Virus record (IMG/VR): IMGVR_UViG_3300030102_006261
Location: 32,001 to 96,000 of that record
Length of the DNA: 64,000 bases
Direction: 5' to 3' (one strand)
Origin: a virus
In this document: piece by piece, positions 1,729 through 59,196 of the stretch
Numbering within the stretch: position 1 is the stretch's first letter
Layout: every line of letters begins with the position of its first letter
Program-made: the position numbers and the translations under genes
Notes under the pieces: generated by a model
Seen by the model: the letters and a program-made list of their open reading frames with translations, nothing else
What the model was told of the DNA's origin: nothing
The model's database searches: none

Positions 1729-2259
1729 ATGGTATACGCGGGGGACGGACAATCAAAGTTTACTACAGGTAAAAGTAGTAAAAAAGATAAAGCTAAACGT
1801 AATGCCGGTGAGATAAAAAGTTCTGGTAAAAGTTATGATAAAAGTTTTAGAAATGTGGTTGAAATCATAGAACCCGTTATTGGTAGTCTTTATAGTGTGT
1901 TTGGTGGTGGTGGATATGAATTTACAGCGGACGTTACTGGAACGGGAAACGGGGCAACCGGAGGAACTGGGTTAAATGAAGTTACAATCATACACAATTA
2001 TCTACCTTATGAACTTTCATCAGTTTCTGACCTAGGAATAACGGTTGGTTGCTCTGGATCAGGTTATCGTGGATGGTCTGGTGGTGTCACCGGGGCTACA
2101 TATAATGAAATCACATATGCACATCCTGATTGGTCTAACTCGATTATATCAGGATCCTCTTTTGGTGCTATTTCTTTAGGTGATTTCTTTGTTTTGACCG
2201 GAACATCAGAAAACGATTCAAGGCAGTGTTGCTATTCATGTCCAGCCACTGGATATTAA
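1729..2259 (+). CDS. Hypothetical virion/baseplate protein, Gly/Thr-rich with Cys-rich C-terminus
   Basis: 176-aa ORF filling the gap between gp7- and gp8-like genes; GATG/GVTG motifs; ends CCYSCPATGY. Confidence 0.6.
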   Translation: MVYAGDGQSKFTTGKSSKKDKAKRNAGEIKSSGKSYDKSFRNVVEIIEPVIGSLYSVFGGGGYEFTADVTGTGNGATGGTGLNEVTIIHNYLPYELSSVSDLGITVGCSGSGYRGWSGGVTGATYNEITYAHPDWSNSIISGSSFGAISLGDFFVLTGTSENDSRQCCYSCPATGY

Positions 2260-2272
2260 AGGGAAATAATTA

Positions 2273-6803: not shown

Positions 6804-8957
6804 ATGGGCGTTGAAGACAATCTATTCGAAATAAATGAACTAGAGACTAGCGACACATTTCAAAGTTGGTTCACTAAAACTAACGCAGAAATCATTGCAA
6901 AGTTAAACAAACTAAAGATCTATGATCTAGAACTTTCAAACATTTCTGGTCTGAGTGGTGCAGTAGGGACTACTGCTGCTGGAACTGGTACTGCCGGTAA
7001 ACTAGAACTCAAACTATTACATACGATTCCACACGGTTTAACTCTGCAAGGTAACGCCACCATTACAGGTTCACTAGAAGCTGGTAGTTTTGCTGGTCCA
7101 AATTCATTTATTCTCAGGGGGCAGGTTGTTGACGGTGTAACCACTGCGTTTGATTTTGGTACGTTCGTTAGAATGGACTCCACAGGTCTTACTAAAGCGA
7201 AAGCAGATTCTGATACCAATGCAGAAGTTCTTGGTATGGTTACAGGAACATCTGATAACAGTATCACTGTAGCTCAGAGTGGATCAGTCACTGGTTTATT
7301 CTCACCCACAATGACAACTGGTGGTGTCTTCTTCCTAGATCCAAACGTAGCGGGTGGTTTTACAGCAACGGAACCAAACTTAGCAGGTCAAGTATCAAAA
7401 CCAGTTCTTATTGGAGGATCGGGTGATACAAACGCTGTTCTCCTATCAATGAGAGGTCAGTTACTACAAGACACTGGAACAGGTAACACTGGTGGATTTG
7501 CAACTCACAAAATTTATGTAAACACTGGATCAATTGATCACCACTTAGTTAAAGGTAAAGTGGTTGCATATAGCCCGGATACTTTAACATTCACCGATGG
7601 TAGATCTCAATTCAATGGATTCTTCCTCGCAAAGAATGATAAAAATATTGATGATACAATCGGTATTGTCACAGGTGAACCGGCTGCCGATACAATTGAA
7701 ATTACAACATCTGGACTAGCAGAGGGCATACCATCCGAGTACGGTAGAGGTAAGTTGTATGTTTCCGGTGTTACGGGTGAACTTAGAAATAATCCAGCCA
7801 CAAATCGAAGAAAACTTTTTGCGATAAATTTTGATCAATCAAATAACAACGCAATAGTCGTCAACCAAGCATCTGTCGCAGTAACGGATCTTCTTTCTGG
7901 ATCATCCCCAAACATACTAATTAACGGTGGATTTGATCTTTGGCAGAGATATCCAACTGGTGCAACAATTACAAGTGTCGATAATATCTATTCCACAGAT
8001 AGGTGGGTTCGCAACCTGAGTGCGACTGGTGCGACACTTTCAGCAGCCACATTTATCAGAAGAAAAGAATTTGATGTTGATCAAGTGGATATTAAGGGTA
8101 ACCCAAAATATTACTTAAGAACACATAATGTCATTACGGGGGCTGTAACTGGAGATCACCTACATTTTGAAAATAGGATTGAAGACTCTAGAACATTAGC
8201 AAGCGAAACTGCAACGGTAAGTGGATATGTTAGATCCGGTGCGGGTAAAGTGATTCCAATACGAATTAAACAAGTATGGAATGGTGTAACTGGATCTGAG
8301 TATAGTGGGGGAACTTTAGAATCATCCACAGATTGGGGATTCTTCAGTAGCACGTTCGATGTTCCCGGTATAACTGGAGCGTCTGCTAATCCAGAAATAA
8401 CTGGCGATCACTACTTGGCTCTTGCGTTTGATTTAACAAATGCAACAAATACTTTCCATGACTTTGCCCAGATAAAACTAGAACATGGTGACAAGGCAAC
8501 CGCCTTCTTCCCAGTCAACGCAGACGATGAACTCAGAAAATCTAGTCGATATTACCAGAGGAGTTACCGACTAGAAGAATTTACTGGTCAAGTCACCAAG
8601 GGTGGTGGTGTAGTTGACTCACACATAGTAGAATTTACACACACTCCATACAACGAAACTTCCTTCAAATATCCAGTTCCTATGAGAACTACACCACTGG
8701 TTAAACTCTACTCTCCAGACTCCGGTAATCAAGATGCATTCAACGCAGCGGCGAAAAGAGATCTCAGAAATACATCGGGAACGATAGCATTTGACGGCAC
8801 TGTTCGCATATGTGAGTCTGGTGTGACTGCCATAACTTCATTCCAAACATCCAGAATAGCCACAAGATTCAAAATTCATGCTGGAGCACATAGATTCGAT
8901 ACGATTCAATTGCACTATGTTGCGGATGCAGACTATAACAATAACGTAACAACATAA
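6804..8957 (+). CDS. Tail fibre / virion structural protein
   Basis: N-terminal SDTF..W..KTN attachment motif; C-terminal NILINGGFDLWQR...DRW...LE.G..AT.F...EL...RYYQ domain common in phage fibres. Confidence 0.65.
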   Translation: MGVEDNLFEINELETSDTFQSWFTKTNAEIIAKLNKLKIYDLELSNISGLSGAVGTTAAGTGTAGKLELKLLHTIPHGLTLQGNATITGSLEAGSFAGPNSFILRGQVVDGVTTAFDFGTFVRMDSTGLTKAKADSDTNAEVLGMVTGTSDNSITVAQSGSVTGLFSPTMTTGGVFFLDPNVAGGFTATEPNLAGQVSKPVLIGGSGDTNAVLLSMRGQLLQDTGTGNTGGFATHKIYVNTGSIDHHLVKGKVVAYSPDTLTFTDGRSQFNGFFLAKNDKNIDDTIGIVTGEPAADTIEITTSGLAEGIPSEYGRGKLYVSGVTGELRNNPATNRRKLFAINFDQSNNNAIVVNQASVAVTDLLSGSSPNILINGGFDLWQRYPTGATITSVDNIYSTDRWVRNLSATGATLSAATFIRRKEFDVDQVDIKGNPKYYLRTHNVITGAVTGDHLHFENRIEDSRTLASETATVSGYVRSGAGKVIPIRIKQVWNGVTGSEYSGGTLESSTDWGFFSSTFDVPGITGASANPEITGDHYLALAFDLTNATNTFHDFAQIKLEHGDKATAFFPVNADDELRKSSRYYQRSYRLEEFTGQVTKGGGVVDSHIVEFTHTPYNETSFKYPVPMRTTPLVKLYSPDSGNQDAFNAAAKRDLRNTSGTIAFDGTVRICESGVTAITSFQTSRIATRFKIHAGAHRFDTIQLHYVADADYNNNVTT

Positions 8958-8972
8958 GTCTAGGAAAAAACA

Positions 8973-10541
8973 ATGTCATCAAGTTTTAAAAACAACACCA
9001 CAAACGTCATAAAATCTTCTACTATTGGCACCCGCATATTGGCAGAGGTTCCAATTGGAAGTATTGAAGCTGGAACAACTGCTGGTGATGTATTAAGAAA
9101 TGGTTTTTCTGGTGCAACGTCTTTTTACTTTAGAGCTGGTGCAACAAGTGCTGCTGCCGCTCGTGTGTTTGGTGTTGTTGAAACCATTCAAGACAAAACT
9201 GCAAACGTTGTTTTACAGGGGCTAATTCAGTATCCTAGCACATTAATATCTGGTGATCCCACGAGTGAAAATTTCTTCCTGAGCGCAGCAACAGCGGGTA
9301 AAGTGCAAAGCTACGCACCACCACAAGCTAGTCAAATAAATAAAAAAGTTCTCCAACAAGTCACAGTGGGTGAATTTAACGCTGCGGTTATCGGAGCAAG
9401 TGATTTTGAATCCGGAGCAAACGTAGGAGAAATTCAAGCATCAAAAACAAGTGATGCTCCAGTTGGAACAGTTTTACCTTATCTTTCAGCGTCTGGTAGC
9501 ACGGCTGTAATTCCGGAGGGATGGGTTGATGGATCGACAATGCAATATTTGTCGGTGACAGAATTCGATGAATATAACACACAGTTTGGTGATATCTTTG
9601 GATTTGAAGAAACACTAACACTGTCGTTCCCAACTTCTGAATTCGCTTCTGGTTTAGTCGGTAAGCAAGTTGTAACCGATCAGGATCACCTGAATAAACA
9701 TGATCGTAGCACTGGTGGTGCTATTGTGACTAATGTTGACACAGCAAACAATAAGTTGACAATCAGGCAAAACAAGTATGATAGAGCACAATACGCTTCA
9801 GGTGTAACCGCTGGATCAACACCACTTTATTTGTATTTTATTCCGGATGACAATAATGGCTTCTTTGAACGTGGTGAACTAATAGGTTACATCAGCTCCG
9901 GTGTACATGATAAAAATGCTACACCCCATATTAGACATAACACGAACAAAATGTCAGAGCCATTTTCTGTTAACGGAACGTATCCTCTCTATAGCACACC
10001 GGGAGCCGCACACGTAGCAAGTCCAGACACCACAGATCCTAACTTTGCGGGTAGTAATTATCATGTTCACACTGGTGCGTTTTTTGGTAGCACCTACGGA
10101 AGCCAGCAGGATCAGGGTGTAGAATTTGGAGTTCTCGCCACCCATTTCCACAGTTACTATATGCCAAATGGGCTAGTATTGTTGGATAATTTTTCTAATG
10201 ATGGTATTTACAATAAAGAAGAATTGCAATACCATGGATCTTCTGGTGGTCAGCGTCTTTATGATGGAAGTCATAACAATCCTGTAACTGACTATCTGAT
10301 CAGACCAACTGGTAATGGAATACATACACATTACACTATGAAAGTGAAAAATATTGTTGCAGTTGACATACCCACTCAGGTGACAGTGCAGACATTAAAT
10401 GTAACACACGGTTTATCGGCTGGCTCCAGTGCGAATAATGTAGCAACTAGTGACGTTGCGTTAGATGTTCAATGTCTGAAAAATAGAATACGTGATCTAG
10501 AAATTAGAATCATGGGATCTGAGCAAAGCTGTGTGCTGTAA
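8973..10541 (+). CDS. Tail-collar-domain fibre protein
   Basis: PVGTVLPY....IPEGWV tail-collar-like motif; His-rich YPLY...HVH...YYMP segment; C-terminal coiled coil. Confidence 0.55.
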   Translation: MSSSFKNNTTNVIKSSTIGTRILAEVPIGSIEAGTTAGDVLRNGFSGATSFYFRAGATSAAAARVFGVVETIQDKTANVVLQGLIQYPSTLISGDPTSENFFLSAATAGKVQSYAPPQASQINKKVLQQVTVGEFNAAVIGASDFESGANVGEIQASKTSDAPVGTVLPYLSASGSTAVIPEGWVDGSTMQYLSVTEFDEYNTQFGDIFGFEETLTLSFPTSEFASGLVGKQVVTDQDHLNKHDRSTGGAIVTNVDTANNKLTIRQNKYDRAQYASGVTAGSTPLYLYFIPDDNNGFFERGELIGYISSGVHDKNATPHIRHNTNKMSEPFSVNGTYPLYSTPGAAHVASPDTTDPNFAGSNYHVHTGAFFGSTYGSQQDQGVEFGVLATHFHSYYMPNGLVLLDNFSNDGIYNKEELQYHGSSGGQRLYDGSHNNPVTDYLIRPTGNGIHTHYTMKVKNIVAVDIPTQVTVQTLNVTHGLSAGSSANNVATSDVALDVQCLKNRIRDLEIRIMGSEQSCVL

Positions 10542-11176: not shown

Positions 11177-11983
11177 ATGGCAACTCCAGATTCTAAACAG
11201 GGGATTATTGATTATGCTTTTAGGCGACTAGGTGCGCCCGTAATCGAGATAAACGTAGATCAAGAGCAAGCAGAAGAGCGTGTTGATGATGCGTTGCAGT
11301 TTTTCTCTGAGCGACACTTTGATGGTGTTGAGAGAGTTTATTTTGCGTATCAAATAACACAAGATGATCTAGATAATAAATTCATAGACACAAATAGTAT
11401 AGGACCGGCGAACGGTTCTGGTAATGATGGTCCAACCGGAAAAGATATCTTATCAATAGTAAGGGTATTTCCTTTTGGTGACTTTGGTAACATAAACATG
11501 TTTGATGTCAGATATCAAATGGCATTAACAGACTATTTTGGTATAAATCGAGGTCTTGGTGCTAATAGTTCAATGGGTATTGCTCGATATGATTCAACAA
11601 AGCGATATATTAATCTAATTCAACAAATATTTGATCCGGAAAAAGCATTGAGCTTTAGTAAAGTAACAAATAGATTACACCTAGAAATGAATCATAGTGA
11701 GGATATTAAAGAAGGTGAGTTTATTATACTAGAGGCATACGCATCGTTAAATCCAGATGTATTCACTGAGATTTATAATGATCGTCTTTTGAAAGAGTAT
11801 GTTACCGCTCTTATTAAACGTCAATGGGGGCTCAATTTATCTAAGTTCGACGGTGTTCAGTTGCCAGGTGGAGTTACTCTTCGTGGTGGGCAGATATATC
11901 AAGAGGCACTAGCTGAGATCGCTCAATTAGAACAAAGAGTTTACTCAGAGTATGAGCTTCCATCAGACTTTATGGTTGGATAA
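11177..11983 (+). CDS. gp13: Neck protein gp13
   Basis: RRLGAPVIEINV, HFDG, LK.Y.TALIKRQWG.NLSKF.GVQLPGGVT..G motifs. Confidence 0.92.
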   Translation: MATPDSKQGIIDYAFRRLGAPVIEINVDQEQAEERVDDALQFFSERHFDGVERVYFAYQITQDDLDNKFIDTNSIGPANGSGNDGPTGKDILSIVRVFPFGDFGNINMFDVRYQMALTDYFGINRGLGANSSMGIARYDSTKRYINLIQQIFDPEKALSFSKVTNRLHLEMNHSEDIKEGEFIILEAYASLNPDVFTEIYNDRLLKEYVTALIKRQWGLNLSKFDGVQLPGGVTLRGGQIYQEALAEIAQLEQRVYSEYELPSDFMVG

Positions 11984-11985
11984 TA

Positions 11986-12930
11986 ATGGCAAGAAATCCC
12001 TACATACGCGATGTAAATTCAGAGCAAAAGCTTGTTGAAGACCTAACTATTGAAACAATAAAGTCAATGGGTAGGAACATGGTGTACATTCCCAGAAAAC
12101 TACAGAGTGAGGATGATTTATTTGGTGAAGATGTAAACTCCAAGTTTGACGATGTTTATGACTTGGAAATGTATATTCTCAATGTCAGTGGGTTTGAGGG
12201 TGAGGGTGATATAATTGCAAAGTATGGTTTAGAAATCAAGGATAGAGCAACTTTTGTAGTGGCAAGAAAAAGATTTACAGACGAAGTAACCGAAGCCGAT
12301 GGATCAATTGATCGTCCAAGAGAGGGTGATCTAATATATTTTCCTCTAACTAAGGCACTTCTAGAAATCAATTTCGTGGAGCACGAAAATCCTTTTTATC
12401 AGCTAGGTTCATTATATACTTTTACATTGGTTTGTGAGACATTTACTTACAATAACGAAAAGTTTGATACTGGCATAGAAGATTTAGATGACATATTTAA
12501 AGACAGGAGAAAGAAAACAAGATCTCTTGTGCTTACTGGATCCCCCATCGCAGAGGGCAGCACCGGAAGAACCGCCAGCAATTATTTCCAAGGAGAGGTG
12601 CTTTTCCAAGTCGCAGGTCAACAAGGAGATACATTCTCGAATGCATCTGCAACTGCTGATATTGTTGACTGGGATGCCAATTCTAAGACACTACTCATCA
12701 CGAATATCTCCGGAAATCTTCTGTATACCTCAAACACAGAGAGTGTCAAGGGTGCCTCATCTGGAGCGGAGTACCTGATAACCACAGACGCAACCGCAGA
12801 TATAATAATACAGCACAACATAGAGGACAATGAGTTCTTTGGTGACAATGAATCAATTGAATTGGAAGGAAACATCGATAATATTATTGACTTCAGTGAC
12901 TCTGATCCATTCTCGGAGGGCAATTTCTAG
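11986..12930 (+). CDS. gp14: Neck/head completion protein gp14
   Basis: YIPR, LFGED..SKF, RPREGDLIYFP, FVEHE.PFYQLG motifs; terminal DFS..PF. Confidence 0.92.
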   Translation: MARNPYIRDVNSEQKLVEDLTIETIKSMGRNMVYIPRKLQSEDDLFGEDVNSKFDDVYDLEMYILNVSGFEGEGDIIAKYGLEIKDRATFVVARKRFTDEVTEADGSIDRPREGDLIYFPLTKALLEINFVEHENPFYQLGSLYTFTLVCETFTYNNEKFDTGIEDLDDIFKDRRKKTRSLVLTGSPIAEGSTGRTASNYFQGEVLFQVAGQQGDTFSNASATADIVDWDANSKTLLITNISGNLLYTSNTESVKGASSGAEYLITTDATADIIIQHNIEDNEFFGDNESIELEGNIDNIIDFSDSDPFSEGNF

Positions 12931-42298: not shown

Positions 42299-42954
42299 GT
42301 AACATACCGGCGGCGGGAGTGTGGAACAGTGATTATGAAAATGCTCGATACAATTGTCCATATTTAAACGAGAATAGTTGTGTTTTGGATCTCGGTGGGT
42401 ATATGGGTGAATTTTCTCATAAGATACAAGAAAAGTATGGGTGTGATGTTCACGTATATGAGCCTATCCATGAGTATTGTGATGCCATCGAAGAAAAATT
42501 AAATTCAAAAATTCACGTTAACAGATTCGCTTTGGGTTCATCTACAGGTGAAGAGAAAATTTTGTTGAGTGGTGAAGGCACTACCTTAGAAAAATACGAC
42601 AGAAGAAACAACTCTTCTCATAAAGGCAGCCCGGGTGAAGACATTAAATCATCTCCATCAGAAGAAATTGATGTGGTAGATATTTTAGATGAAATTAAAA
42701 AGTATGATGAAATTGATTTGATGAAAATAAATGTGGAAGGGGCTGAGTATGAGATATTACCAATTTTAATTGAATCTGGTGATATCAAAAAAGTCAAAAA
42801 TCTTCAGGTTCAGTTTCATAGTTTTGTTGATAATGGCTATGACATGTATGTTGAATTGAAACATATTTTGTCTGAGACACATGAGGTAGTATTGGATTCT
42901 GTATGGAAGTGGACATTCTGGACAAGGAAAAATCATGCCGATATCAAACGGTAA
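42295..42954 (+). CDS. FkbM-family SAM-dependent methyltransferase
   Basis: VLDLGGY.G, YEP, IDLMKIN.EG.EY, QVQFH. Confidence 0.85.
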   Translation: MSNIPAAGVWNSDYENARYNCPYLNENSCVLDLGGYMGEFSHKIQEKYGCDVHVYEPIHEYCDAIEEKLNSKIHVNRFALGSSTGEEKILLSGEGTTLEKYDRRNNSSHKGSPGEDIKSSPSEEIDVVDILDEIKKYDEIDLMKINVEGAEYEILPILIESGDIKKVKNLQVQFHSFVDNGYDMYVELKHILSETHEVVLDSVWKWTFWTRKNHADIKR

Positions 42955-45849: not shown

Positions 45850-45850
45850 G

Positions 45851-47721: not shown

Positions 47722-48394
47722 TAATAGGTTTACTATAAAATATTATGATGAAATAATCAAAAAAGCAAAATCGAATGATTATGTTTTTGTTACTGTGCAT
47801 GAATATTTTGATCTAGGTTGCCCTACCACGGGGTATTTTATTCTTAGACATGATTTAGATAAACACCCACAAACATTACAGAAGCAATTGGATGTTGAAA
47901 TTTCTAATGGTGTTCGTTCAACAATTTATGCGAGGGTCACTGCAAACGATTATAATGTTTTGTCATATCCAGTTTTAAAAATGTTAAGGAGTGCGGAGGA
48001 TGATGGATTTGAAATTGGATTGCATACTAATTTTGTCGAATACGCAACAATAAATTCTTTAGATCCTATGAAGGTTTTGTCCATGGAGAATGAACTATTA
48101 AGTTCTTTTTTTGATGTGCGAGGTCTTGCTCCACACAGGGATTTAAATTATGCGTACAACTCTCTTCCGTTCATAAAAAGAAATTGGAACCAAATAAAAA
48201 CTATTGGTTTTGACTATGAGGCATATGATGATCAAATCTTTTCCTCTTGTGTGTACGTAAATGAAGGTTTTAATCCACATCTATGTTGGAGAAATAACGC
48301 ACCAGAAGATGTGATTGAGACTGGTGTTTCAATTTATATGATGACACATAACCACTGGTGGTATGATGAAAATCCATTCGAGGAGTGGAGATGA
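47711..48394 (+). CDS. Polysaccharide deacetylase-like (CE4/WbmS-like)
   Basis: LRHDLD, GFEIGLH and H..WW metal-binding motifs. Confidence 0.65.
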   Translation: MQSNNRFTIKYYDEIIKKAKSNDYVFVTVHEYFDLGCPTTGYFILRHDLDKHPQTLQKQLDVEISNGVRSTIYARVTANDYNVLSYPVLKMLRSAEDDGFEIGLHTNFVEYATINSLDPMKVLSMENELLSSFFDVRGLAPHRDLNYAYNSLPFIKRNWNQIKTIGFDYEAYDDQIFSSCVYVNEGFNPHLCWRNNAPEDVIETGVSIYMMTHNHWWYDENPFEEWR

Positions 48395-49035
48395 AACTAG
48401 CATTACTTGGCTATAGAAAATGGGCATTAAATGCTTTTAGTCTTATTCAAAAAGAATATCCGATGCATGATTACACCGTGATCACGAATCCAGACGAGGT
48501 TGGAGATTTAGAGGATTGTGTTGTTTTAGGTGCTGGGTGGAGTTGGTTGATCTCTAACGAGTTTTTAGCTAAAAATGAAATAGTTGCATTGGTACATCCA
48601 TCTGATTTACCTGAATATGCAGGGGGCACACCAATACAACATCAAATACTCGATGGACTATTGAATACGAAGGCCACTTTGTTTGAAGTTACTAATAAAC
48701 TTGATGCAGGACCTATAATCTACAAAACAGATTTCAATTTGTCTGGTAGCATGGATGACATATTTGTTTCTCTAACCAAAGCAACCATGAATCTTTTTTC
48801 TAATTTCTTAGATAATTATCCTGACATACCCAGACGATCACAGAAAGTGGGTATGGTTCGAAAAAGGTTAACCCCCGATCAAAGTGAATTATCGGCTGAT
48901 GACTTTAAAACTATGTCTGCACATGACATATATAATCATATTAGATGTAGAGAGTATCCTTATCCAAATGCGTATATTGAGGATCACTCAGGTAGATTAT
49001 ATTTTAGTAATGTTCGTTTTGAGAGAAGTGAGTAA
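48391..49035 (+). CDS. Formyltransferase (second copy)
   Basis: GWSW.I, HPSDLP.Y.GG.PIQ.QI, LDAG, IR....PYPNAY. Confidence 0.8.
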   Translation: MKLALLGYRKWALNAFSLIQKEYPMHDYTVITNPDEVGDLEDCVVLGAGWSWLISNEFLAKNEIVALVHPSDLPEYAGGTPIQHQILDGLLNTKATLFEVTNKLDAGPIIYKTDFNLSGSMDDIFVSLTKATMNLFSNFLDNYPDIPRRSQKVGMVRKRLTPDQSELSADDFKTMSAHDIYNHIRCREYPYPNAYIEDHSGRLYFSNVRFERSE

Positions 49036-49037
49036 AA

Positions 49038-49955
49038 TTGAAAGAAGATATAATTCAAATTGGAATACCTTGTTTTTCCTACGAGGGTGATTGTGAAAAC
49101 TACGTTAGATTTGTCATACAATCCATGGTTTTGACTGCCAATGATTCAACAAAGTTGGAATTTTTAATTGGTCTAAATGGTGATGGTATTGATTTAAAGA
49201 AGATGTCTGGTGTGCATGATAACGTAAAGTTTATAGATGTGATTGGCGAGATTGAACGAAGAGTCGGTGATGCCCCGCATAAAACTAAGTTTACGACTTC
49301 ATCATTAAATCATGGTGAATTATTAGACACTCTGTTTAAACATCTTGATTCTCGTTATGGTATGTGGGTTGATTCAGATATGGCATTTTTATGTCTTGAT
49401 TGGGACATAAAAATGAAAGCTTGCTTAAATGAAAACTGTGCCATAGTTGGATTGACGTACCCAAAAAATAGAAATAGATATGAGGATTTTCCTACTGTGA
49501 TGGCTTGCATGTTTGATGTGGAAGTTATGAAAAAATTAAACATGACGTTCACCACGGAAAATATGGGATCTGTTAGATCAACTCTTGTAGATCAAAATGA
49601 AAGTAAAATTTTTAATCAGCAAGTAGGATCCACAATAAATCTTGATAGCGGAGAAATGTTACCTACTATTCAGCTTCACGGATACAGTGGTAAGCCCATA
49701 CATAGTATTCATCTTTTTCAAGATGACGGTGTTAGAATTTTCTTGGATCGTGACTTAGACGTTGCTAGGAGAAAATCACCAGTCAAAGGTGGGAATGGTA
49801 AAATTTGTGAGGGACATTTAGATGGTGAATTAATTTTAACGCACTTGTCGGAATCGCGGTATAGAAAATACAATGATGATCCTTTGTCGATAATTTGGCT
49901 ACAAAAAGTTCAACTTTGGCTCAAAGAAAAATGTGGTGTTGAGGTAGAGATATGA
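49038..49955 (+). CDS. Glycosyltransferase GT-A-like
   Basis: S..HG..LD, VDSD..FL...WD, D.G motifs. Confidence 0.6.
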   Translation: MKEDIIQIGIPCFSYEGDCENYVRFVIQSMVLTANDSTKLEFLIGLNGDGIDLKKMSGVHDNVKFIDVIGEIERRVGDAPHKTKFTTSSLNHGELLDTLFKHLDSRYGMWVDSDMAFLCLDWDIKMKACLNENCAIVGLTYPKNRNRYEDFPTVMACMFDVEVMKKLNMTFTTENMGSVRSTLVDQNESKIFNQQVGSTINLDSGEMLPTIQLHGYSGKPIHSIHLFQDDGVRIFLDRDLDVARRKSPVKGGNGKICEGHLDGELILTHLSESRYRKYNDDPLSIIWLQKVQLWLKEKCGVEVEI

Positions 49956-50776
49956 AAAAAGTTGTTTCAGTGAAATACAGTGATGGATTTGGTAATCACA
50001 TATTTCAGTACTGTGGATCTAGGGTATTGGCGGAAAAAAATGGATATGAGTTATCACATCATGGCATACCAGAGTTAAATCTTAAAGACAATATTAGAGA
50101 CGGTAGTGTTGGTGATACTAGATTTATTTTCAATGTGACAAATAATTTTGAAGACTACACCTTATATAAGGATAGACTTGACGACATTAGATCATGGTTT
50201 CCAAAAGTAGAAAAAACCAACACTAAGGATCTGATATTACATTTGAGATTGGGTAACAGAATAGCTCAAAATACTCATCATATGAATCATGTTGATTCTA
50301 AAAGATACTGTAGTGTCATTGAAACTTTTGATTTTGATCGACTGCACATCATAACTGATGCAGATAAATGGGATGTTCATGAAACAGAGGATGTTAGAAA
50401 TCTGTACTCAGAATTACAATCATTCAATAGTGTTCGAGGATTCGATCCACGGCACAATTTGGTATCTGAGTCTACTGCGGTTGATTACATAAACGAACTG
50501 GTGAGTGGACTCTCTCATTATGATCCCATAATACACACAGAAAAAGCTGGTGTGATTAAAAATGAATCTGCCCTTAAAGCTAATTTTATAGATCATTTTA
50601 ACTTCATTCGTTCCTTTGATAAAATATTATTTAAGGACAGCACGTTCTCTTGGTGGGCATCAGTTTTGAGTGAGGCCACGGATGTCTGTGTATATGGTCC
50701 ATGGAAACCAAATAAAGGGAAGAAAAATAAAAACTTAGGTAAAACAGATTATGCTGGATGGAGATCATGGTCATGA
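49952..50776 (+). CDS. Alpha-1,2-fucosyltransferase-like (GT11)
   Basis: G.GN.IFQY, HLRLG, STFSWWA. Confidence 0.75.
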   Translation: MKKVVSVKYSDGFGNHIFQYCGSRVLAEKNGYELSHHGIPELNLKDNIRDGSVGDTRFIFNVTNNFEDYTLYKDRLDDIRSWFPKVEKTNTKDLILHLRLGNRIAQNTHHMNHVDSKRYCSVIETFDFDRLHIITDADKWDVHETEDVRNLYSELQSFNSVRGFDPRHNLVSESTAVDYINELVSGLSHYDPIIHTEKAGVIKNESALKANFIDHFNFIRSFDKILFKDSTFSWWASVLSEATDVCVYGPWKPNKGKKNKNLGKTDYAGWRSWS

Positions 50777-51837
50777 ATGAGATAATCGCAGATAGAGTTC
50801 GTAATATAGAAAAGAAAGTCGGTAAGAATCAACTGTATCCGTTAAATATTGTACCACCTAGACGGTTGATTCTTGATCGTATCCCAGAAAAAAGAAAGTT
50901 ACTCGGAACAATAATTCCTGGCGCTCAGGAAACATATGTGTTTACTGAGCAAGAACCATACTATAAAGATTATCAAGAAAGTTATTTCGGATATAATTGG
51001 AAAAAGGGTCAATGGGATACAGGGAGAAATCAGGAAATCATGATGAATGGTTGTGTCCCTTTATTCATGGATATAGATAAATGTCCTGAGTATTGTCTTA
51101 TGCATCACCCCAAAGAAAAATATGAAAGCATTAGAAATCGATACGCTGGAAAATCTCTGGGATATATTAATAATTTTGATGGTGATGAATATGAGCAGGA
51201 CTGTTTATGGTTGATGGATTACTGTAGAGAAAATTTAAACAGTGAGGCAATGGCTAAATTTTCTTTATCAGTAACACAGAATGAGAAAGTTAAAAATGTA
51301 CTATTCATTACACTTGGTGATCGAGCAGATCAATTGAATGATTACATGTTTATCGGATTTAGAAATTTATTGGGGAGTGGTGTGGTTGAAACTAATAAAT
51401 TGTGGTGGGTATATAAAGATGTTAATGAGGGATATACCTATAGAGGAACTAATGATGATCGAGTTCAGATAAATCCAAATGATCCAAATTTGTCAAAAAA
51501 GGACAGAGATGGTTTAGTAAAAAATAAAGTTAAGGTTACCGAGTTGCGTGGTGGTGGCTTTACTTACTCTGGTCATCTAGATGATGTTGATGTTGACCGG
51601 GAGAATATAGAGGATAAAATAAGAGATAAATATTATGATCTAATTGTTTATGGATCTTTTAATAGGTGCAAAGATCACTTAGATTTGGTTTTAGATAATT
51701 ATGAAAAAGATAATATTTTCTTTTTTGATGTTGATGATGATGTAGTAAACAAAAAAATTAGACCTGATACGTATGAAAAATACAAAAGCAAAGGTATTTA
51801 TTTTTGTCCAGATTTAAGGGTTATGCTGAATGATTGA
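50773..51837 (+). CDS. Putative glycosyltransferase
   Basis: YY.DY..S.FG...KKG.WD..R..EI..NGC.P.F motif (GT-B C-terminal-like); island context. Confidence 0.5.
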   Translation: MNEIIADRVRNIEKKVGKNQLYPLNIVPPRRLILDRIPEKRKLLGTIIPGAQETYVFTEQEPYYKDYQESYFGYNWKKGQWDTGRNQEIMMNGCVPLFMDIDKCPEYCLMHHPKEKYESIRNRYAGKSLGYINNFDGDEYEQDCLWLMDYCRENLNSEAMAKFSLSVTQNEKVKNVLFITLGDRADQLNDYMFIGFRNLLGSGVVETNKLWWVYKDVNEGYTYRGTNDDRVQINPNDPNLSKKDRDGLVKNKVKVTELRGGGFTYSGHLDDVDVDRENIEDKIRDKYYDLIVYGSFNRCKDHLDLVLDNYEKDNIFFFDVDDDVVNKKIRPDTYEKYKSKGIYFCPDLRVMLND

Positions 51838-51857
51838 ACAAAAGGATGTGTGTTGAT

Positions 51858-52559
51858 ATGAAAAAACTAACGATTGTAATGACGTATTATAACCAAGATA
51901 AAATGCTCAAGAAGCAAATTGAAAATTGGAATTCATATTCCAAAGATATCAGAGATCAAGTGCATTTTATTTTGGTTGATGATTGTTCAATGGAAAATTC
52001 AACGGAAAGTTTTGATTTTTCTGGGTGTGATTTTGACCTTGATGTTTACAGAGTTCTTGATGACGTTTACTTTAACGTTCCGGGTGCGGTGAATCTCGGT
52101 GCGGATAAAACGGAAACTGAGTGGTTTATCAAGCAAGATATGGATACAATTATTCCAGAATACACCATGGATGAAATTATACAATTAACTGAATCTGCAC
52201 CGGAGAAGTCTATCTACAAGTTTTATAGAATAAACGGCACAGAAATAAGCAACGCAAACAAAATTACCCCAGGTCAGTTTATGATTCGCAAGGATGATTT
52301 TTGGGATATCGGTGCTTGGGATGAGGATTTTTGTGAAGACTATGGTATGAATGATCCTGCGTTTTTCTGGAGAGCGTCCCAAGATAATTACACAGTCTTT
52401 GAAAGACACGATCTTCACGTTACTATTGATGGTGATGGTGAGTCTGACATAGAGAGAGATTGCACGGTAAACTCTACTTTACTGGAGCAAAAGAAGTCTG
52501 GTCAAGTTGAGTGGTCGGATGATTATATCAGATTTAATTGGAAACAAATCGAAATATGA
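51858..52559 (+). CDS. Glycosyltransferase GT2/GT7-like
   Basis: LVDD.S, N.GA, DMD, FW.IG.WDEDF...YG..D. Confidence 0.72.
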   Translation: MKKLTIVMTYYNQDKMLKKQIENWNSYSKDIRDQVHFILVDDCSMENSTESFDFSGCDFDLDVYRVLDDVYFNVPGAVNLGADKTETEWFIKQDMDTIIPEYTMDEIIQLTESAPEKSIYKFYRINGTEISNANKITPGQFMIRKDDFWDIGAWDEDFCEDYGMNDPAFFWRASQDNYTVFERHDLHVTIDGDGESDIERDCTVNSTLLEQKKSGQVEWSDDYIRFNWKQIEI

Positions 52560-53212
52560 AGATAGCTCTATACACGGTGAATATTGGAAACTACGATGAA
52601 AGAATCGTAGCTCCTGAGATACCCGGAGTTGATTTGTACATGATCACCGATGATGAGGAGGAAGTTCAGGTTCCCGGTTGGAGAATGAAATCTCCCATGG
52701 TTCTGTCGGACACGGCTAGAAAAACCTCAAGACATCCGAAAATTAATTCCCACTTATACTTTCCCGACTACGACTACACAATTTATATTGATTCTAATAT
52801 GTTCATCAATAGACATCCAAAGTTTTTTATAGAAGAATTTCTTGGCGAACATGATATCGCTCTACACAAAAATCCATACCGATCATGTGCGTATGATGAA
52901 GCAAAAGAAATACGGGATGTTCTGAAGTATGAAGATCCAGACGTTGTTGATCAGCAAGTAGCACATATGCGGTTTAATGGTTACCCAGAACATAATGGTC
53001 TTGGTGCCTGTCATTTATTAGTGCGACGTAATACACCACAGATATCTAAATTAAACGAGCACTGGTGGTCTATGGTCGCTCAGTTTAGTTACAGAGATCA
53101 GTTGAGTTTTAATTATTCTTGTTATAAAACTAATAATAAATATAAGGTAATAGAACCATATAAAAAATATACGGTACAACAGAATCACAAAAAGAAGAAA
53201 GTGACTTTTTAA
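52556..53212 (+). CDS. DUF616 (TOD1/MUCI70-like) glycosyltransferase
   Basis: YT...G.YD, R..K...H..FP.Y..TIYID, H.....R.C.Y.E, WW......RDQLSFNY. Confidence 0.75.
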   Translation: MKIALYTVNIGNYDERIVAPEIPGVDLYMITDDEEEVQVPGWRMKSPMVLSDTARKTSRHPKINSHLYFPDYDYTIYIDSNMFINRHPKFFIEEFLGEHDIALHKNPYRSCAYDEAKEIRDVLKYEDPDVVDQQVAHMRFNGYPEHNGLGACHLLVRRNTPQISKLNEHWWSMVAQFSYRDQLSFNYSCYKTNNKYKVIEPYKKYTVQQNHKKKKVTF

Positions 53213-53213
53213 A

Positions 53214-54218
53214 ATGAAAGTATTGATTACAGGTGTAGCAGGGCTTTTAGGATCTAGGTTAGCTGATTGGATTATAGAAAATAAACCAGAGTGTGAAGTT
53301 GTCGGTTATGATGATATGTCTGGGGGATATAAAGAAAATGTAAACCCCGAGGTTAAATTTTGGACTAGACACCAAGAAAATTTGTTAAACTCAGAGAATC
53401 TAAACTGGGTGTTCGAGGAAGAGAAACCTGATTATGTTTTTCACTTCGCAGCGTATGCAGCAGAGGGTCTTAGTCCATTTATCAGGAGTTACAATTATCA
53501 AAACAATACTGTATGCACCGCAAATGTTATTAATAATTGTATTAACCATGATGTTAAGCGTCTAGTTTTTACCTCTAGCATGGCTGTTTATGGTGATCAA
53601 CAACCACCCTTTTCAGAGGAGATGGTACGATCACCCATTGATCCGTATGGTATTGCAAAATCTGCGTGTGAGCAGGATATAGAAATAGCGGGTAAGCAGC
53701 ATGACCTTGACTGGTGTGTTATTCGTCCACATAACGTATATGGTATCAAACAAAATATCTGGGACAAATACAGGAATGTTTTAGGTATTTGGATGTATCA
53801 ACATCTCAATGGACAACCAATAACTATTTTTGGGGATGGAGAACAGAAGAGGGCGTTTAGCTACATTGATGATTGTGTCGAGTCATTGTGGAAAGCTGCG
53901 GTGGATTCAAGAGCCTCTAGAGAAATAATTAATCTCGGTGGTACGAAAGAATATTCGATCAATGAAGCCGCTAATATTTTACTTGACGTAATGGGCGGTG
54001 GTGAGGTAAAATACTTAGAGGAAAGACACGAAGCAAAATACGCTTGGTCTACACACCAGAAGTCATTGGATCTTTTGGATTACGAGGACAAGACTTCTCT
54101 TAAAGATGGTCTAACTGAGATGTGGAACTGGGCAAAAAAACAAGAAAATCGCGAACGTCGAGATTTTGATAAATTTGAAATTGACAAGGGAATTTATTCG
54201 TTTTGGAGAAAAAAATGA
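53214..54218 (+). CDS. NAD-dependent sugar epimerase/dehydratase (extended SDR)
   Basis: TGVAG.LG, HFAA, SSMAVYG, YGIAK, NVYG, GDG.Q.R.F.YIDD. Confidence 0.9.
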   Translation: MKVLITGVAGLLGSRLADWIIENKPECEVVGYDDMSGGYKENVNPEVKFWTRHQENLLNSENLNWVFEEEKPDYVFHFAAYAAEGLSPFIRSYNYQNNTVCTANVINNCINHDVKRLVFTSSMAVYGDQQPPFSEEMVRSPIDPYGIAKSACEQDIEIAGKQHDLDWCVIRPHNVYGIKQNIWDKYRNVLGIWMYQHLNGQPITIFGDGEQKRAFSYIDDCVESLWKAAVDSRASREIINLGGTKEYSINEAANILLDVMGGGEVKYLEERHEAKYAWSTHQKSLDLLDYEDKTSLKDGLTEMWNWAKKQENRERRDFDKFEIDKGIYSFWRKK

Positions 54219-55300
54219 AAACAGCATTAGTTTGTGGAGCAGGTGGTTTTATTGGTGGACATTTAGTTCAAAGACTAAAGGACGAGGGCTATTGGGTTCG
54301 TGGGGTTGATATTAAAAACCATGAATACACGGATCTTCCGTGTGACGATTTTCAGATTCTTGATCTAAGAAGCGAAACCAATGTTAGACGAGCAATGAAA
54401 GCTGCTCTAGGCGATCTCAGTATTACATTCGACGAAGTATATCAACTTGCTGCGGACATGGGTGGTGCTGGTTACATTTTCACTGGAGACAATGATGCAA
54501 ACGTTATGCATAACTCAGCGATGATTAATCTTAATGTCGCTAAGGTGGCTAGTGAGTTTAGTAACCCACCCAAGATCTTTTACTCTTCGTCTGCCTGTAT
54601 GTACCCCGAGTATAACCAACTGGATCCAGATAACCCAAAGTGCTCTGAGGATTCCGCATATCCCGCTGCACCCGACAGTGAGTATGGTTGGGAGAAGTTG
54701 TTCAGTGAAAGACTTTACTTCGCGTTCAATAGAAACTACGGGCTTGATATTAGAGTCGCTAGATTCCATAACATCTTTGGACCCCAAGGATCTTGGAACA
54801 ATGGTAAAGAGAAGGCTCCAGCAGCTATGTGTCGTAAGGTAGCAGAAGTTGAGGATGGTGGAGAGATTGAAATGTGGGGAGACGGAGAACAGACTCGTTC
54901 GTTCCTTTACATTGATGAGTGTCTTGATGCGATGCGTAAGATGATGGAAAGTGATTTCATGGGACCAATGAATATTGGATCAGAGGAGATGGTAACAATC
55001 AATCAGCTAGTTGATATTGTCAGTGATGTTTCAGGTAAGACAGTGAATATTAATCATATTGATGGTCCAACTGGTGTCCGGGGTAGAAACTCTGATAACG
55101 ATCTTATGCGAGAAAAGCTAAATTGGAGTCCATCGAAGTCTTTGCGAGAGGGTATTGAGAAGACATACGCATGGATTAGTCGTAATGTCGAAATGGGATT
55201 AGATGATGTTGTTATGACAAACGAAGAAGCGATTGAAACTAATCTAAATACATACACAGAAACCGCAGAGTTAGATACTGCTGACAAGTTTTCATTATAA
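54215..55300 (+). CDS. GDP-D-mannose 3',5'-epimerase-like
   Basis: GAGGFIG, LAADMGG.G, SSAC.YP, AYPA.P...YG.EKL, RFHNI.GP.G.W..G.EKAPAA.CRK and GVRGRNSDN, all GME signatures. Confidence 0.85.
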   Translation: MKTALVCGAGGFIGGHLVQRLKDEGYWVRGVDIKNHEYTDLPCDDFQILDLRSETNVRRAMKAALGDLSITFDEVYQLAADMGGAGYIFTGDNDANVMHNSAMINLNVAKVASEFSNPPKIFYSSSACMYPEYNQLDPDNPKCSEDSAYPAAPDSEYGWEKLFSERLYFAFNRNYGLDIRVARFHNIFGPQGSWNNGKEKAPAAMCRKVAEVEDGGEIEMWGDGEQTRSFLYIDECLDAMRKMMESDFMGPMNIGSEEMVTINQLVDIVSDVSGKTVNINHIDGPTGVRGRNSDNDLMREKLNWSPSKSLREGIEKTYAWISRNVEMGLDDVVMTNEEAIETNLNTYTETAELDTADKFSL

Positions 55301-56608: not shown

Positions 56609-57793
56609 ATGCAATTCATAGTTGCCAAAAACATACACGAAAACTTACCAGTTGGTTCTGTAGTTGAGCAGGTGAATCCAACTGATCCTGATGTCACTAT
56701 ATCATTGGGATTTGGTTTGGGTGAAGTGCATGTAATAAGTGAAGGTGGTGAAATATTTCTCTTTCAGGGACCTCAAAAAACAATTAAACAGGTTTTAGAG
56801 GTTGTCTATGAAAGTAAACCAACAAAAACTTTACCACCAAAAGTTAAGGAATCTGTCACTAAACCTAAACCAGTTGTGGAGCAAGTTCAAGGTAGACCTG
56901 GTGTACCCGGACCTCCCGGTCAGAAGGGAGATCCGGGTGTCATGGGTCCGGAGGGACCGAGAGGCTTACCCGGTGCTGATGGTGCTGATGGTGCTGATGG
57001 CGTGCCCGGCCCACAGGGTGAACAGGGTGAAGTTGGACCACAAGGAGCACAGGGTGAGCCTGGTGTGCAGGGAGAGCAGGGAATCGCTGGACCTCAAGGT
57101 GAACCAGGCGCGCCCGGATCTCCCGGTTTGGATGGGAAAGATGGTGTTGATGGTAAAGATGGATTAGACGGCAAAGATGGTGTTGATGGTAAAGATGGTG
57201 TTGATGGTAAAGATGGTTTAGACGGCAAAGACGGCACTGATGGTAGAGATGGTATAGACGGAAAAGCTGGTGCAAAGGGTCAGCGTGGTCCAAAAGGTTC
57301 AAAGGGTGATCCGGGTAAGATTGGACCGAAGGGCGATCGAGGTGATGCAGGTGAAAGAGGAGAAAAGGGAGATGCAGGAAAAGATGGTGAAGCTCCTGTA
57401 ATGAGAGCTAAATTCCCTCTTAAACTCGAAGAGGATGGTGTGTTGTCATTCGACAGAGTTTCTTTGGACAACTTACTTCGAGTTAGTTCTGGTACAAACG
57501 GTCCTGACTATGCCGCCGTGAATGACTGGTTGGCAGCAGCGGGTGGTGCGGTTGGTATTAGAAAAGATGGTAATCTTTTAATTAGTTCCGTTAGTGATAT
57601 GAAGTTTCGTGGTATAAATATGAATGTAACACTACAAGGAAAAGATGTGGATCTAACCTCTGGTGTGTATATTTCAGACACTGATCCTACCACAGAGGGT
57701 GTAGAGACTGTGTCAGGCGAACTTTGGTTTGATACAAGCGGCGGGGGCGGAGTTTTAAGAATGAGAAACGTTAACGAATGGTTTGAAATCTAA
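56609..57793 (+). CDS. Collagen-like fibre protein
   Basis: 56 uninterrupted G-X-Y triplets; C-terminal G.LWFD...W.EI module. Confidence 0.85.
   Translation: MQFIVAKNIHENLPVGSVVEQVNPTDPDVTISLGFGLGEVHVISEGGEIFLFQGPQKTIKQVLEVVYESKPTKTLPPKVKESVTKPKPVVEQVQGRPGVPGPPGQKGDPGVMGPEGPRGLPGADGADGADGVPGPQGEQGEVGPQGAQGEPGVQGEQGIAGPQGEPGAPGSPGLDGKDGVDGKDGLDGKDGVDGKDGVDGKDGLDGKDGTDGRDGIDGKAGAKGQRGPKGSKGDPGKIGPKGDRGDAGERGEKGDAGKDGEAPVMRAKFPLKLEEDGVLSFDRVSLDNLLRVSSGTNGPDYAAVNDWLAAAGGAVGIRKDGNLLISSVSDMKFRGINMNVTLQGKDVDLTSGVYISDTDPTTEGVETVSGELWFDTSGGGGVLRMRNVNEWFEI
56891..57394 (+). repeat. Collagen G-X-Y repeat with nested (GAD)3 and six 18-nt G(L/V)D-GKD units (57125-57232)
   Basis: Directly visible tandem repeats, e.g. 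GGTGTTGATGGTAAAGAT. Confidence 0.9.
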
Positions 57794-59196
57794 TGGGTAA
57801 AGAAACAATTGCATTTCCAACAACAGGATTAGTCACGAATGTGAGTAAGCACACCATCGGTACCAAGTCGTGGGTGTGGAATGGTTCTGCGTGGGATAAA
57901 GACGAACATGGGCACAGTGGAAATAATGTTGTTGATTCTTTCAACGGTCAAACTGGTGATGTGACAGGTGTTGGTTCATTTGATGGTTTGACTGGTAGTG
58001 TTCTTGCACGGAACATATTACCACACATTCACCTAGCAGGTATCTCCTCCGATGGTGGAGCAACCTTTGGTGGTATCGTCAACCACAGTGGTGACGTTAA
58101 TATTACAGGTGCATTGGACGTAACTGGTAACTCCCACCTCATTGGTGGTATATCTGCTGACAGGGGAGCAACACTCAGTGAAATTACTATCGTGGCCGGT
58201 AGTGGTATTAAGAACACGAATGATGCACCTAACCTAGCAGTCAAATTCGAAACCGGCAAAGTAACATTGGGTGACGCCTCGGGTAGTGATGATAACACAA
58301 CAGTTGTGGTTGATGATGGGAATACAACAATTGAATTGAACTCCCCCACTGTCACAGTCAGTGAGGACATCGTTCATTCTGGTGACACGAATACTAAACT
58401 CACATTCAACACAGATCAGATTAAAACTGATGCTGGTGGAAACACAATAATAGAAGTGAACGCTGGTGATTTCAAAGTCCTTACTGGTATATCCGCAGCA
58501 GCAGGGGCCACGTTCGCAGGGTTGGTAGAGTCGAGTGGTATATCGTGTGGTACGTCCACAGTCGGATCGGTTACTATTGGTGGTGGTGTCATGGTAGGTA
58601 CAGCAACTGTCGCTCTTTTGGCAAACACCGCAACAGCAGCGACTACTGCAACTAACGTTAGTATATCAGCAGTGGATGATGATACACAATATAGAATTCC
58701 TTTTGCAGCAGGTGCAGCAGCAGGAACAGTCGCTCTTGGATTAAAGAGTGACAGTGGTAACACATCTGAAGGGCTGTTCTTCCGCCCTGACATCGCAACA
58801 CTCACAACCGGAACTGTGCAAGCTCTTGGTGTAACTTTAGGTGACAGAGGAATTACGTTTGCTGATGGAACTGGTATTGTCACCGCCACGAGAACTGATT
58901 CATACACTGGACAAATCGAAACTGTATCGGACAAAACATATATCATCGATCCCTCTGCCGCCACTGACAGAACAATTACCGGGTATTATATCAAATCTGG
59001 TGCTGGTACGGTAACAGCAACTCTGAAAAACGCAAACGACACAGTTAAGGCTGCTAGTGTTGCGACTACAAGCGGTGATCAAAGTTCTTTGGCTAATACC
59101 TCCGTGTCCGCAGGTGCAACCATGAGTATTGTTACGTCCAGTAATTCGTCTGCAACTGATGTCGTGTTCAGCGTGGAGTATACTACAATATCATGA
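57793..59196 (+). CDS. Fibre-like structural protein
   Basis: N-terminal FP....W.WNG.AW, V.SFNGQTG trimer motif, repeated GIS...GAT(F/L), Ala/Thr-rich; TAATG coupling to the collagen gene. Confidence 0.65.
   Translation: MGKETIAFPTTGLVTNVSKHTIGTKSWVWNGSAWDKDEHGHSGNNVVDSFNGQTGDVTGVGSFDGLTGSVLARNILPHIHLAGISSDGGATFGGIVNHSGDVNITGALDVTGNSHLIGGISADRGATLSEITIVAGSGIKNTNDAPNLAVKFETGKVTLGDASGSDDNTTVVVDDGNTTIELNSPTVTVSEDIVHSGDTNTKLTFNTDQIKTDAGGNTIIEVNAGDFKVLTGISAAAGATFAGLVESSGISCGTSTVGSVTIGGGVMVGTATVALLANTATAATTATNVSISAVDDDTQYRIPFAAGAAAGTVALGLKSDSGNTSEGLFFRPDIATLTTGTVQALGVTLGDRGITFADGTGIVTATRTDSYTGQIETVSDKTYIIDPSAATDRTITGYYIKSGAGTVTATLKNANDTVKAASVATTSGDQSSLANTSVSAGATMSIVTSSNSSATDVVFSVEYTTIS

Follow-up and report, generated by a model that had tools for sequence, protein, structure and literature searches.

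What does a glycosyltransferase joined to tetratricopeptide repeats (TPR) modify when it is encoded at the end of a large sugar-gene island in a T4-like phage? The enzyme, here called GT2-TPR, lies in a 64,000-nucleotide stretch of viral DNA (the window), which comprises bases 32001-96000 of the 142,160-bp IMG/VR record IMGVR_UViG_3300030102_006261; the completeness of the record is estimated at 78%. All genes of the window are on the + strand. They were called simply as the longest open reading frames (ORFs), and PHROG and Pfam searches of these ORFs identify a T4-like myovirus. The phage is an uncultured marine T4-like virus; its major capsid protein shares ~52-54% identity with the capsid proteins of Pelagibacter phage HTVC008M, Methylophilales phage Melnitz and cyanomyoviruses. 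When the structural block and the island were compared with GenBank phages by megablast, only short matches to the capsid gene or none were obtained. Between regA and gp43 the genome carries a block of ~25 kb (the glycan island, GT2-TPR, a collagen-repeat protein, a fibre-like protein and small ORFs; Table 1). The original prediction made from this DNA was that GT2-TPR primes threonine in G-x-T-(G/A) motifs over the whole virion and that the island elongates the glycan. We find that this motif is in about threefold excess in neck, sheath, head and fibre proteins of the phages that carry the enzyme, and we put the probability that the dispersed sites on several virion proteins are glycosylated at about 0.5. 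The support for glycosylation is circumstantial.

The statistical part of the case is solid. In 18 virion or virion-block ORFs (6,816 residues; baseplate- and fibre-block ORFs that have no annotation are counted as virion proteins on position alone) the pattern G.T[GA] is counted 28 times where whole-protein shuffles predict 8.8 (z ~6.5), and none of 1000 shuffles reaches 28. Local shuffles within 30 or 15 residues put the expectation at 10.1 and 10.9, respectively (z 5.5 to 5.75). Every motif example listed in the original prediction is present in the ORF to which it had been assigned, but the motif proves wider than had been proposed: threonine is in excess, yet serine is just as frequent at the third position. 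G.S[GA] is seen 24 times (7.8 expected) and the joint motif G.[ST][GA] 52 times (16.6 to 20.8 expected). Control patterns of the same composition, whether reversed, shifted, with another fourth residue or with A or S replacing the first G, stay at expectation (observed/expected: [GA]T.G 12/8.8, T.G[GA] 8/8.9, GT.[GA] 11/8.8, G.T[ST] 8/9.5, A.T[GA] 8/6.8). When all 27,401 patterns of the form a.b[cd] are ranked in the virion set, G.T[AG] comes first (p 2.3e-7). The expected scarcity of the motif in replication and enzyme genes holds, with no excess in 23 replication ORFs (2/1.7) or in 23 island ORFs (2/1.8). Chance or composition as the cause of the excess is ruled out by the global and local shuffles together with the same-composition controls.

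The motif is unevenly distributed over the particle. The two fibre ORFs have 7 GxT[GA] (717 residues, 1.6 expected) and 3 (522 residues, 0.8 expected), the latter with 4 GxS[GA] in addition. Alignments with six T4-like outgroups, all whole genomes (HTVC008M, Melnitz, marine virus AG-345-L05, Syn19, S-SSM7 and T4), bear out the suspicion that the motifs occupy insertions or extensions: in gp13, gp14, gp15, gp18 and gp23 they are found at lineage-specific loops, insertions or tails, at which the outgroups have other residues or gaps. The neck sites lie in a loop of gp13, in the variable C-terminal part of gp14 and in the C-terminal tail of gp15. The structure model of the sheath protein gp18 is of low confidence [predicted local distance difference test (pLDDT) 36.7]; in a profile match to T4 gp18 only its residues from ~139 onward map to the conserved core. 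The gp23 cluster is in a lineage-specific loop that aligns to T4 gp23 residues ~157-176. In T4 gp23, linker 1 of the I domain comprises residues 132-160 and the I domain protrudes from the capsid surface (PMC9546572); judged by this alignment, the cluster is located where linker 1 ends and the surface I domain begins. No such motif occurs in gp19 (tube), gp21 (protease), gp22 (scaffold), the collagen ORF and five ORFs of the baseplate block, among them 13-867, 4098-5222, 5219-6793 and 10559-11137, and the sole motif of gp20 (portal) is a clade-conserved GRSA. With tube, portal, scaffold and several baseplate ORFs lacking it, the description of a whole-virion system was an overstatement.

A relative of GT2-TPR is not encoded in any of the six outgroup genomes. 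For the orthologues of gp3, gp13, gp14, gp15, gp18, gp19, gp20 and gp23, the phage has 12 GxT[GA] against 2.2 expected and the six outgroups together have 19 against ~17, which rules out the excess as a generic trait of T4-like virion proteins. In a tree of gp20 and gp23 all enzyme-bearing phages fall into one clade (support 0.98), sister to the group of HTVC008M, Melnitz and cyanophages. The recurrent gene order in 80 loci of this clade is regA, variable island, GT2-TPR, small ORF, collagen, fibre, dCTP deaminase, gp43. GT2-TPR is always at the 3' end of the hypervariable island, whose content differs in nearly every related contig; in six clade contigs there is no island and regA runs directly into GT2-TPR. 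Among the 80 closest relatives by gp43, nearly every locus that extends far enough upstream has the enzyme and no clade member without it was found, those with none in view being too short (for example L264, 15 kb). Within this monophyletic T4-like clade GT2-TPR counts as a fixed core gene.

Ten other contigs of the clade were used as a validation set, in which core virion orthologues contain 74 GxT[GA] against 24.5 expected (32.8 with local shuffles). GxS[GA] behaves likewise (48 against 21.7). In the same contigs the reversed control is seen 32 times (24.2 expected), and the non-virion core proteins have 13 GxT[GA] (11.3 expected). In the validation set G.T[AG] takes second place among 59,243 patterns; in the outgroups it is 15,847th. 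Broken down by protein, the clade excess is 6.8-fold for gp15, 3.8-fold for gp14, 3.2-fold for gp13 and 3.1-fold for gp18; in the outgroups the neck proteins gp13, gp14 and gp15 are at 0.7-1.8 times expectation, and the gp18 counts are 48 against 15.3 expected in the clade and 12 against 12.2 in the outgroups. Tube, scaffold, protease and terminase show no clade-wide excess; gp23 shares in it only partly, and no more than in the outgroups. The sites turn over between phages. At several hot-spot columns only x changes and the G, the S/T and the G/A are retained; the outgroups have no motif at these columns. Together these counts support an excess that is specific to exposed virion proteins of the enzyme-carrying clade. 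UvsW (24548-26059) has one G.[ST][GA] site which is conserved in clade and outgroups alike; it is a conserved helicase site outside the virion signal.

GT2-TPR (432 residues) consists of an N-terminal GT-A domain, a TPR-like helical domain (~residues 183-351) and a Lys-rich tail. Pfam matches are to PF00535 and, at residues 191-231, to TPR_16/17/6. It has both hallmarks of SgtA-like enzymes, a DxD metal/nucleotide-sugar motif and C-terminal TPR; the segment D98-A-D100-D101 is invariant in an alignment of 21 homologues. In the AlphaFold2 model (pLDDT 86) the N-terminal domain has a Rossmann-like β-α alternation, followed by the helical repeats of residues 183-351. Foldseek matches this model over both domains to SunS and ThuS (E 1e-14 to 5e-13); bare TPR proteins come next, then GT-A enzymes of wall teichoic acid synthesis (E ~5e-6). 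When a profile built from the homologue alignment was compared with all PDB sequences, the only glycosyltransferases matched were GmaR (6e-9), ThuS (2e-4) and SunS (4e-3); each of these closest relatives of solved structure glycosylates a protein or a peptide. GT2-TPR is not a member of the SunS family (TIGR04195), scoring 19.6 bits against an NCBIfam cut-off of 350, and the resemblance is at the level of the fold only. Relatives number 143 in IMG/VR (43-65% identity) and 2,148 in a protein collection at E < 1e-5; related metagenomic proteins exceed 2,000. Sequence and model speak for a protein-glycosylating type of enzyme with GT-A and TPR domains, and GT2-TPR is a candidate priming protein O-glycosyltransferase.

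Gene linkage connects enzymes of this type to GxT-rich proteins in three settings. In the clade loci, the ORFs that follow GT2-TPR up to the dCTP deaminase gene are loaded with motifs: 34 collagen-like ORFs have 680 (98 expected), a conserved protein of ~140 residues encoded directly after GT2-TPR in 40 related loci has 133 (19.8 expected) in a loop packed with GxTG, and the remaining downstream ORFs have 164 (74 expected), whereas the island enzymes upstream have 51 (60.7 expected). About half of the collagen-like ORFs have threonine at the Y position (GxT type). The phage has its own copy of the small loop protein (160 residues, E 2e-31), encoded outside the window at 100729-101211 of the genome (L371:4729-5211); the gene has moved to ~5 kb beyond gp43, and its only PHROG match is to a family of unknown function.

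The second setting is bacterial. A scan of prokaryotes at one genome per species found 127 relatives of GT2-TPR, of which the best 80 are mostly from spore-forming Bacillota and are 25-36% identical over both domains. A collagen-like ORF is located within 8 kb, mostly adjacent, in 11 of these 80 loci, and all 11 are of the GxT type. In two ~4-Mb genomes essentially all matches to (GxT)5-coding DNA (165 of 166 and 4 of 4) are in the enzyme locus, as are most or all matches in a third; collagen genes that alternate GxT with GPS or GPA triplets escape this pattern, and the genome-wide control counts for three of five genomes. In Psychrobacillus (L293/L361, L299) two to three very long (GxT)n collagen-like genes, encoding up to 1,524 residues with 329 motifs, stand beside one or two GT-A plus TPR genes, and nearly all GxT-repeat DNA of the genome is in that locus. 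The third setting is the Tunturiibacter jumbo phage Tunturi_5, in which the homologue gp35 is encoded 3.7 kb from the tail fibre gp29. This fibre has 66 GxT[GA] (8.7 expected) with eight (GPT/GAT)n blocks and accounts for the whole excess of that genome. The collagen blocks of gp29 (L272/L274, record 28905-33314) alternate with repeated globular modules of ~100 residues, and four paralogous genes for ~285-residue proteins lie between gp29 and the GT2-TPR homologue.

The island upstream of GT2-TPR contains 22 ORFs, all predicted to be soluble. A hydropathy scan found no island ORF with at least three hydrophobic segments and only 2 of 1,526 ORFs with that many in the 80 related loci, although host enzymes could substitute; by the same scan no membrane protein resembling a flippase, polymerase, transporter or initiating phosphoglycosyltransferase was found in the island. 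The pathway therefore looks cytoplasmic and stepwise on the acceptor rather than lipid-linked, unlike O-antigen and capsule loci that depend on undecaprenyl phosphate, which are marked by multi-pass membrane proteins; a soluble-only island is what cytoplasmic stepwise glycosylation leads one to expect. Six island ORFs of unknown function have no NCBIfam match. One clade contig (G001, loci L146-L150) has a counterpart for every gene of the island (35-82% identity, in most cases 46-82%), despite core genes that are only ~50-60% identical and a GT2-TPR at 49%, and the island therefore appears to move as a cassette between distant members of the clade. S-SSM7 and AG-345-L05 have homologues of a few island genes (two to three in S-SSM7).

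The closest functional precedent is SgtA of Clostridioides difficile, a GT-A plus TPR enzyme whose gene is immediately upstream of bclA3; SgtA adds β-O-linked N-acetylglucosamine (GlcNAc) to threonine of GPT collagen repeats and tolerates serine, and other enzymes add further sugars (PMC7157674). Compared by architecture and described activity, both have a GT-A domain that precedes TPR; the threonine that SgtA modifies stands in G-x-T-G, and enzyme and collagen genes are paired in this way also among the Bacillota relatives of the phage enzyme. The phage enzyme differs in length (432 against 358 residues) and in its T4-like carrier, and it has a sugar-enzyme island of ~19 kb attached; the collagen beside it has no GxT, and the motif is present as scattered single sites on unrelated virion proteins instead of long repeats. 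GmaR of Listeria monocytogenes is a flagellin O-GlcNAc transferase and also an anti-repressor (PMC9638930). GmaR (PDB 22ao) is the best sequence match among solved structures and, like GT2-TPR, joins a GT2 domain to TPR; its substrate, a filament protein, is modified in the cytoplasm. The match is limited to the first ~100 residues, and the phage offers no flagellar context. SunS and ThuS (PDB 7MSN, 7MSP, 7MSK), the best full-length fold match (GT-A and helical repeats, E 1e-14), are glycocin S-/O-glycosyltransferases that modify a residue in a Gly-rich peptide loop. They are ~16% identical to the phage enzyme, and the phage has no glycocin precursor or transporter. To our knowledge, glycosylated phage particles have been demonstrated experimentally only for a few actinobacteriophages. 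Mycobacteriophages glycosylate their own capsid and tail proteins with phage-encoded glycosyltransferases (Freeman et al. 2023, as summarized in PMC12619734); according to that summary, siphoviruses of actinobacteria bear these glycans on the C-terminal tails of their capsid and tail-tube subunits (PMC12619734). The present proposal differs in concerning a marine myovirus, another type of enzyme and a short motif that is internal to neck, sheath, head and fibre proteins.

From these observations we infer an acceptor site, a donor sugar, elongation steps and a glycan on the particle. GT2-TPR is most likely a cytoplasmic SgtA-like protein O-glycosyltransferase, in which the GT-A domain would transfer the first sugar from a nucleotide sugar while the TPR domain holds the protein substrate. 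Freshly synthesized virion proteins would receive this sugar on threonine or serine of their G-x-[T/S]-[G/A] turns, either ahead of assembly or while it proceeds. The likely acceptors are the sheath, gp13, gp14 and gp15 of the neck, the fibres, the capsid protein at its surface loop, and the small loop protein whose gene lies beyond the window. Unusual nucleotide sugars are predicted to come from the soluble island enzymes. A dehydratase, an aminotransferase and two formyltransferases could yield an N-formylated amino-deoxy sugar, and a uronic acid and 6-deoxy or epimerized hexoses are also predicted. Lengthening and decorating the glycan would fall to seven more glycosyltransferase-like enzymes together with a methyltransferase and a sulfotransferase, and exchange of the island as a cassette would vary the coat in the manner of a serotype. 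Under this scheme the particle is probably sugar-coated. The priming role first proposed for the enzyme is partly supported, by the enzyme type, the linkage to GxTG-rich fibres, the clade-specific excess and the soluble-only island, and loses its whole-virion reach.

Several observations weigh against glycosylation of the dispersed sites. The collagen next to GT2-TPR in this phage, whose start codon abuts the GT2-TPR stop codon, is built of GxQ, GxD and GxK triplets and has no GxT[GA]; the (G-x-T)n type is seen in about half of the clade collagen ORFs, in 11 of 80 bacterial loci and near the Tunturi_5 homologue. No GxT-rich gene is found within 10 kb of either of two megaphage homologues. Large proteins encoded elsewhere in the genome (3218, 1306 and 977 residues) show no motif excess. 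Each of six other T4-like phages has a top peptide pattern of its own that is stronger than this one, and relatives ~84% identical keep the motif sites no better than control sites (29 of 37 against 80-85%). That motif density follows the enzyme agrees with the clade and outgroup counts, but all enzyme-bearing phages form one clade and the co-variation is therefore a single evolutionary contrast. Outward-facing motifs had been foreseen as well; the gp23 cluster fits, being the only one for which exposure is placed, by alignment to the T4 protein.

Some of these points suit a narrower role, in which GT2-TPR modifies just its neighbours (the collagen and fibre proteins and the small GxTG-loop protein) and the motifs of neck, sheath and capsid are an unmodified loop style of the clade. 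It is indeed the Tunturi_5 fibre and, in relatives, the genes that directly follow the enzyme which have the heaviest motif loads; the known relatives SgtA, GmaR and SunS each act on one dedicated substrate, and sites conserved no better than controls in close relatives, like a gp23 excess no larger than that of the outgroups, are what such a role would leave. We nevertheless find it doubtful, for the 3- to 7-fold excess in gp13, gp14, gp15 and gp18 is clade-specific and order-specific, survives local shuffling and has sites that turn over, so that neutral loop style does not readily explain the neck and sheath, and the adjacent collagen of this phage is without an acceptor motif. We give still less credence to a purely structural account, by which G-x-[S/T]-[G/A] is a turn element spread for folding or assembly and GT2-TPR does something else. 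The residues are small and turn-prone, every phage examined has enriched peptide patterns of its own, and there is only one clade contrast, but the same-composition controls are flat, and enzyme and GxTG are linked three times independently (in Bacillota, in Tunturi_5 and in the downstream genes of the clade).

The island itself could instead serve auxiliary metabolism, remodelling the host envelope (lipopolysaccharide, capsule, S-layer or a host protein) or making a free polysaccharide, with the motif unrelated to it. Lipopolysaccharide-type gene clusters of cyanomyoviruses have been proposed to remodel the host envelope during infection, and the cluster of S-SSM7, usually read in this way, resembles the island: in this marine T4-like phage, too, genes for nucleotide sugars and glycosyltransferases fill a large and hypervariable block, and two to three island genes have homologues there. 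S-SSM7 has neither GT2-TPR nor the motif excess. O-antigen-like nucleotide-sugar genes, island contents as hypervariable as O-antigen loci and the few homologues in S-SSM7 and AG-345-L05 speak for host-directed synthesis. We regard it as decidedly unlikely, given the lack, by the hydropathy scan, of membrane proteins of the phosphoglycosyltransferase, flippase, polymerase or ABC-transporter kind in this island, an island that always ends in a protein-type glycosyltransferase and then fibre genes, and motif statistics that it leaves unexplained. Glycosylation of a modified DNA base, as by the T4 glucosyltransferases, is suggested by the position of the gene in the replication module near nucleotide-metabolism genes, both here and in Tunturi_5, and by minimal clade loci that read regA, GT2-TPR, dCTP deaminase. 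It is extremely improbable: the 142-kb record, an estimated 78% complete, has no gene of the thymidylate-synthase/dCMP-hydroxymethylase family (PF00303), which control genomes do match, the fold and TPR domain of GT2-TPR match peptide and protein glycosyltransferases and are GT-A against the GT-B of the T4 type, and the fibre genes and the motif would go unexplained.

Table 1. Features of the window, in window coordinates, with the searches that identify them.
Feature	Position	Strand	Basis	Remarks
Baseplate and fibre ORFs	13-11137	+	PHROG/Pfam	
Gly-rich 176-residue ORF, baseplate block	1729..2259	+	no family match	3 GxT[GA], 2 GxS[GA]
Two fibre ORFs	6804..10541	+	PHROG tail fibre family	
gp13, gp14, gp15, gp16, gp17, gp18, gp19, gp20, gp21, gp22, gp23, gp3	11177-24107	+	PHROG/Pfam	
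Neck proteins gp13, gp14, gp15	11177..13703	+	PHROG	1, 2 and 3 GxT[GA]
Tail sheath gp18, 449 residues	15840..17189	+	PHROG	3 GxT[GA], 4 GxS[GA]
Major capsid protein gp23	21949..23460	+	PHROG	motif cluster at residues 152-182, GNSA at 226
UvsY, UvsW, gp55, gp47, gp46, gp45, gp44, gp62, regA	up to 36353	+	PHROG/Pfam	
Glycan island	36382..55300	+	Pfam	22 soluble ORFs, regA to GT2-TPR
Island glycosyltransferase-like ORFs	Nucleotid_trans 37139; GT47-like 37947, 38947; FUT8-like 39830	+	Pfam	
Island glycosyltransferase-like ORFs	GT2 40734, 51834; TOD1/MUCI70-like 52538	+	Pfam	
Island modifiers	FkbM methyltransferase 42295; sulfotransferase 42935	+	Pfam	
Island nucleotide-sugar genes	UDP-sugar dehydrogenase 43680; PseB/CapD-type dehydratase 44806; DegT aminotransferase 45851	+	Pfam	
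Island nucleotide-sugar genes	formyltransferases 46984, 48385; epimerases/dehydratases 53214, 54203	+	Pfam	
GT2-TPR glycosyltransferase, 432 residues	55310..56608	+	Pfam PF00535 and TPR families	
Collagen-repeat fibre protein, 394 residues	56609..57793	+	Pfam Collagen 1e-28; PHROG tail fibre families	
Gly/Thr/Ala-rich fibre-like protein, 467 residues	57793..59196	+	no Pfam/PHROG match	GQTG and GLTG near N-terminus
Two module-end ORFs	59193..60190	+	composition; phrog_15480 2e-14; weak match to Maf N-terminal domain	Thr-rich, 153 residues (17% Thr); methyltransferase-like, 174 residues
dCTP-deaminase/dUTPase-like gene, one further ORF		+	Pfam	after the fibre-like gene
gp43	from 61287	+	PHROG/Pfam	

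Downstream of the collagen gene, the fibre-like gene is kept in relatives, and both small ORFs at the end of the module are conserved there. Elsewhere in the window, the gp46-gp45 interval (30031-32405) holds a pyridoxal-phosphate-enzyme-like ORF (PHROG 'threonine dehydratase') and a 526-residue ORF resembling N6/N4 DNA methylases; the pair, 62-75% identical and kept in part of the clade only, may be a DNA-modification cassette. A GroES-like ORF of 98 residues (35231-35527) is inserted between gp44 and gp62. The G+C content is 48% at 22001-24000, where the major capsid gene is located, against 33-41% nearly everywhere else, and GC skew is negative over the same interval.

Glycosylation of the dispersed sites admits a bolder extension, which we consider unlikely as it stands: that a widespread marine T4-like clade hangs a complex, exchangeable glycan on many of its outer proteins through the sequon G-x-[T/S]-[G/A], with coats that differ like serotypes. 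Just as tentatively, the glycan of this phage would be sulfated, methylated and rich in N-formyl amino sugars. Such coats might mimic marine algal polysaccharides and so lure hosts that forage on polysaccharides, or might shield the particle. If sites on several virion proteins are indeed glycosylated, enzyme and peptide would form a simple pair for glyco-engineering, and phages would have recruited an enzyme type of the bacterial spore coat together with a short, recognizable sequon. A large uncultured clade of marine myoviruses would then coat neck, sheath, head and fibres with phage-made glycans that are swapped as cassettes between phages, which would bear on adsorption, on the stickiness and sinking of particles, on grazing and on immune-type recognition in the sea.

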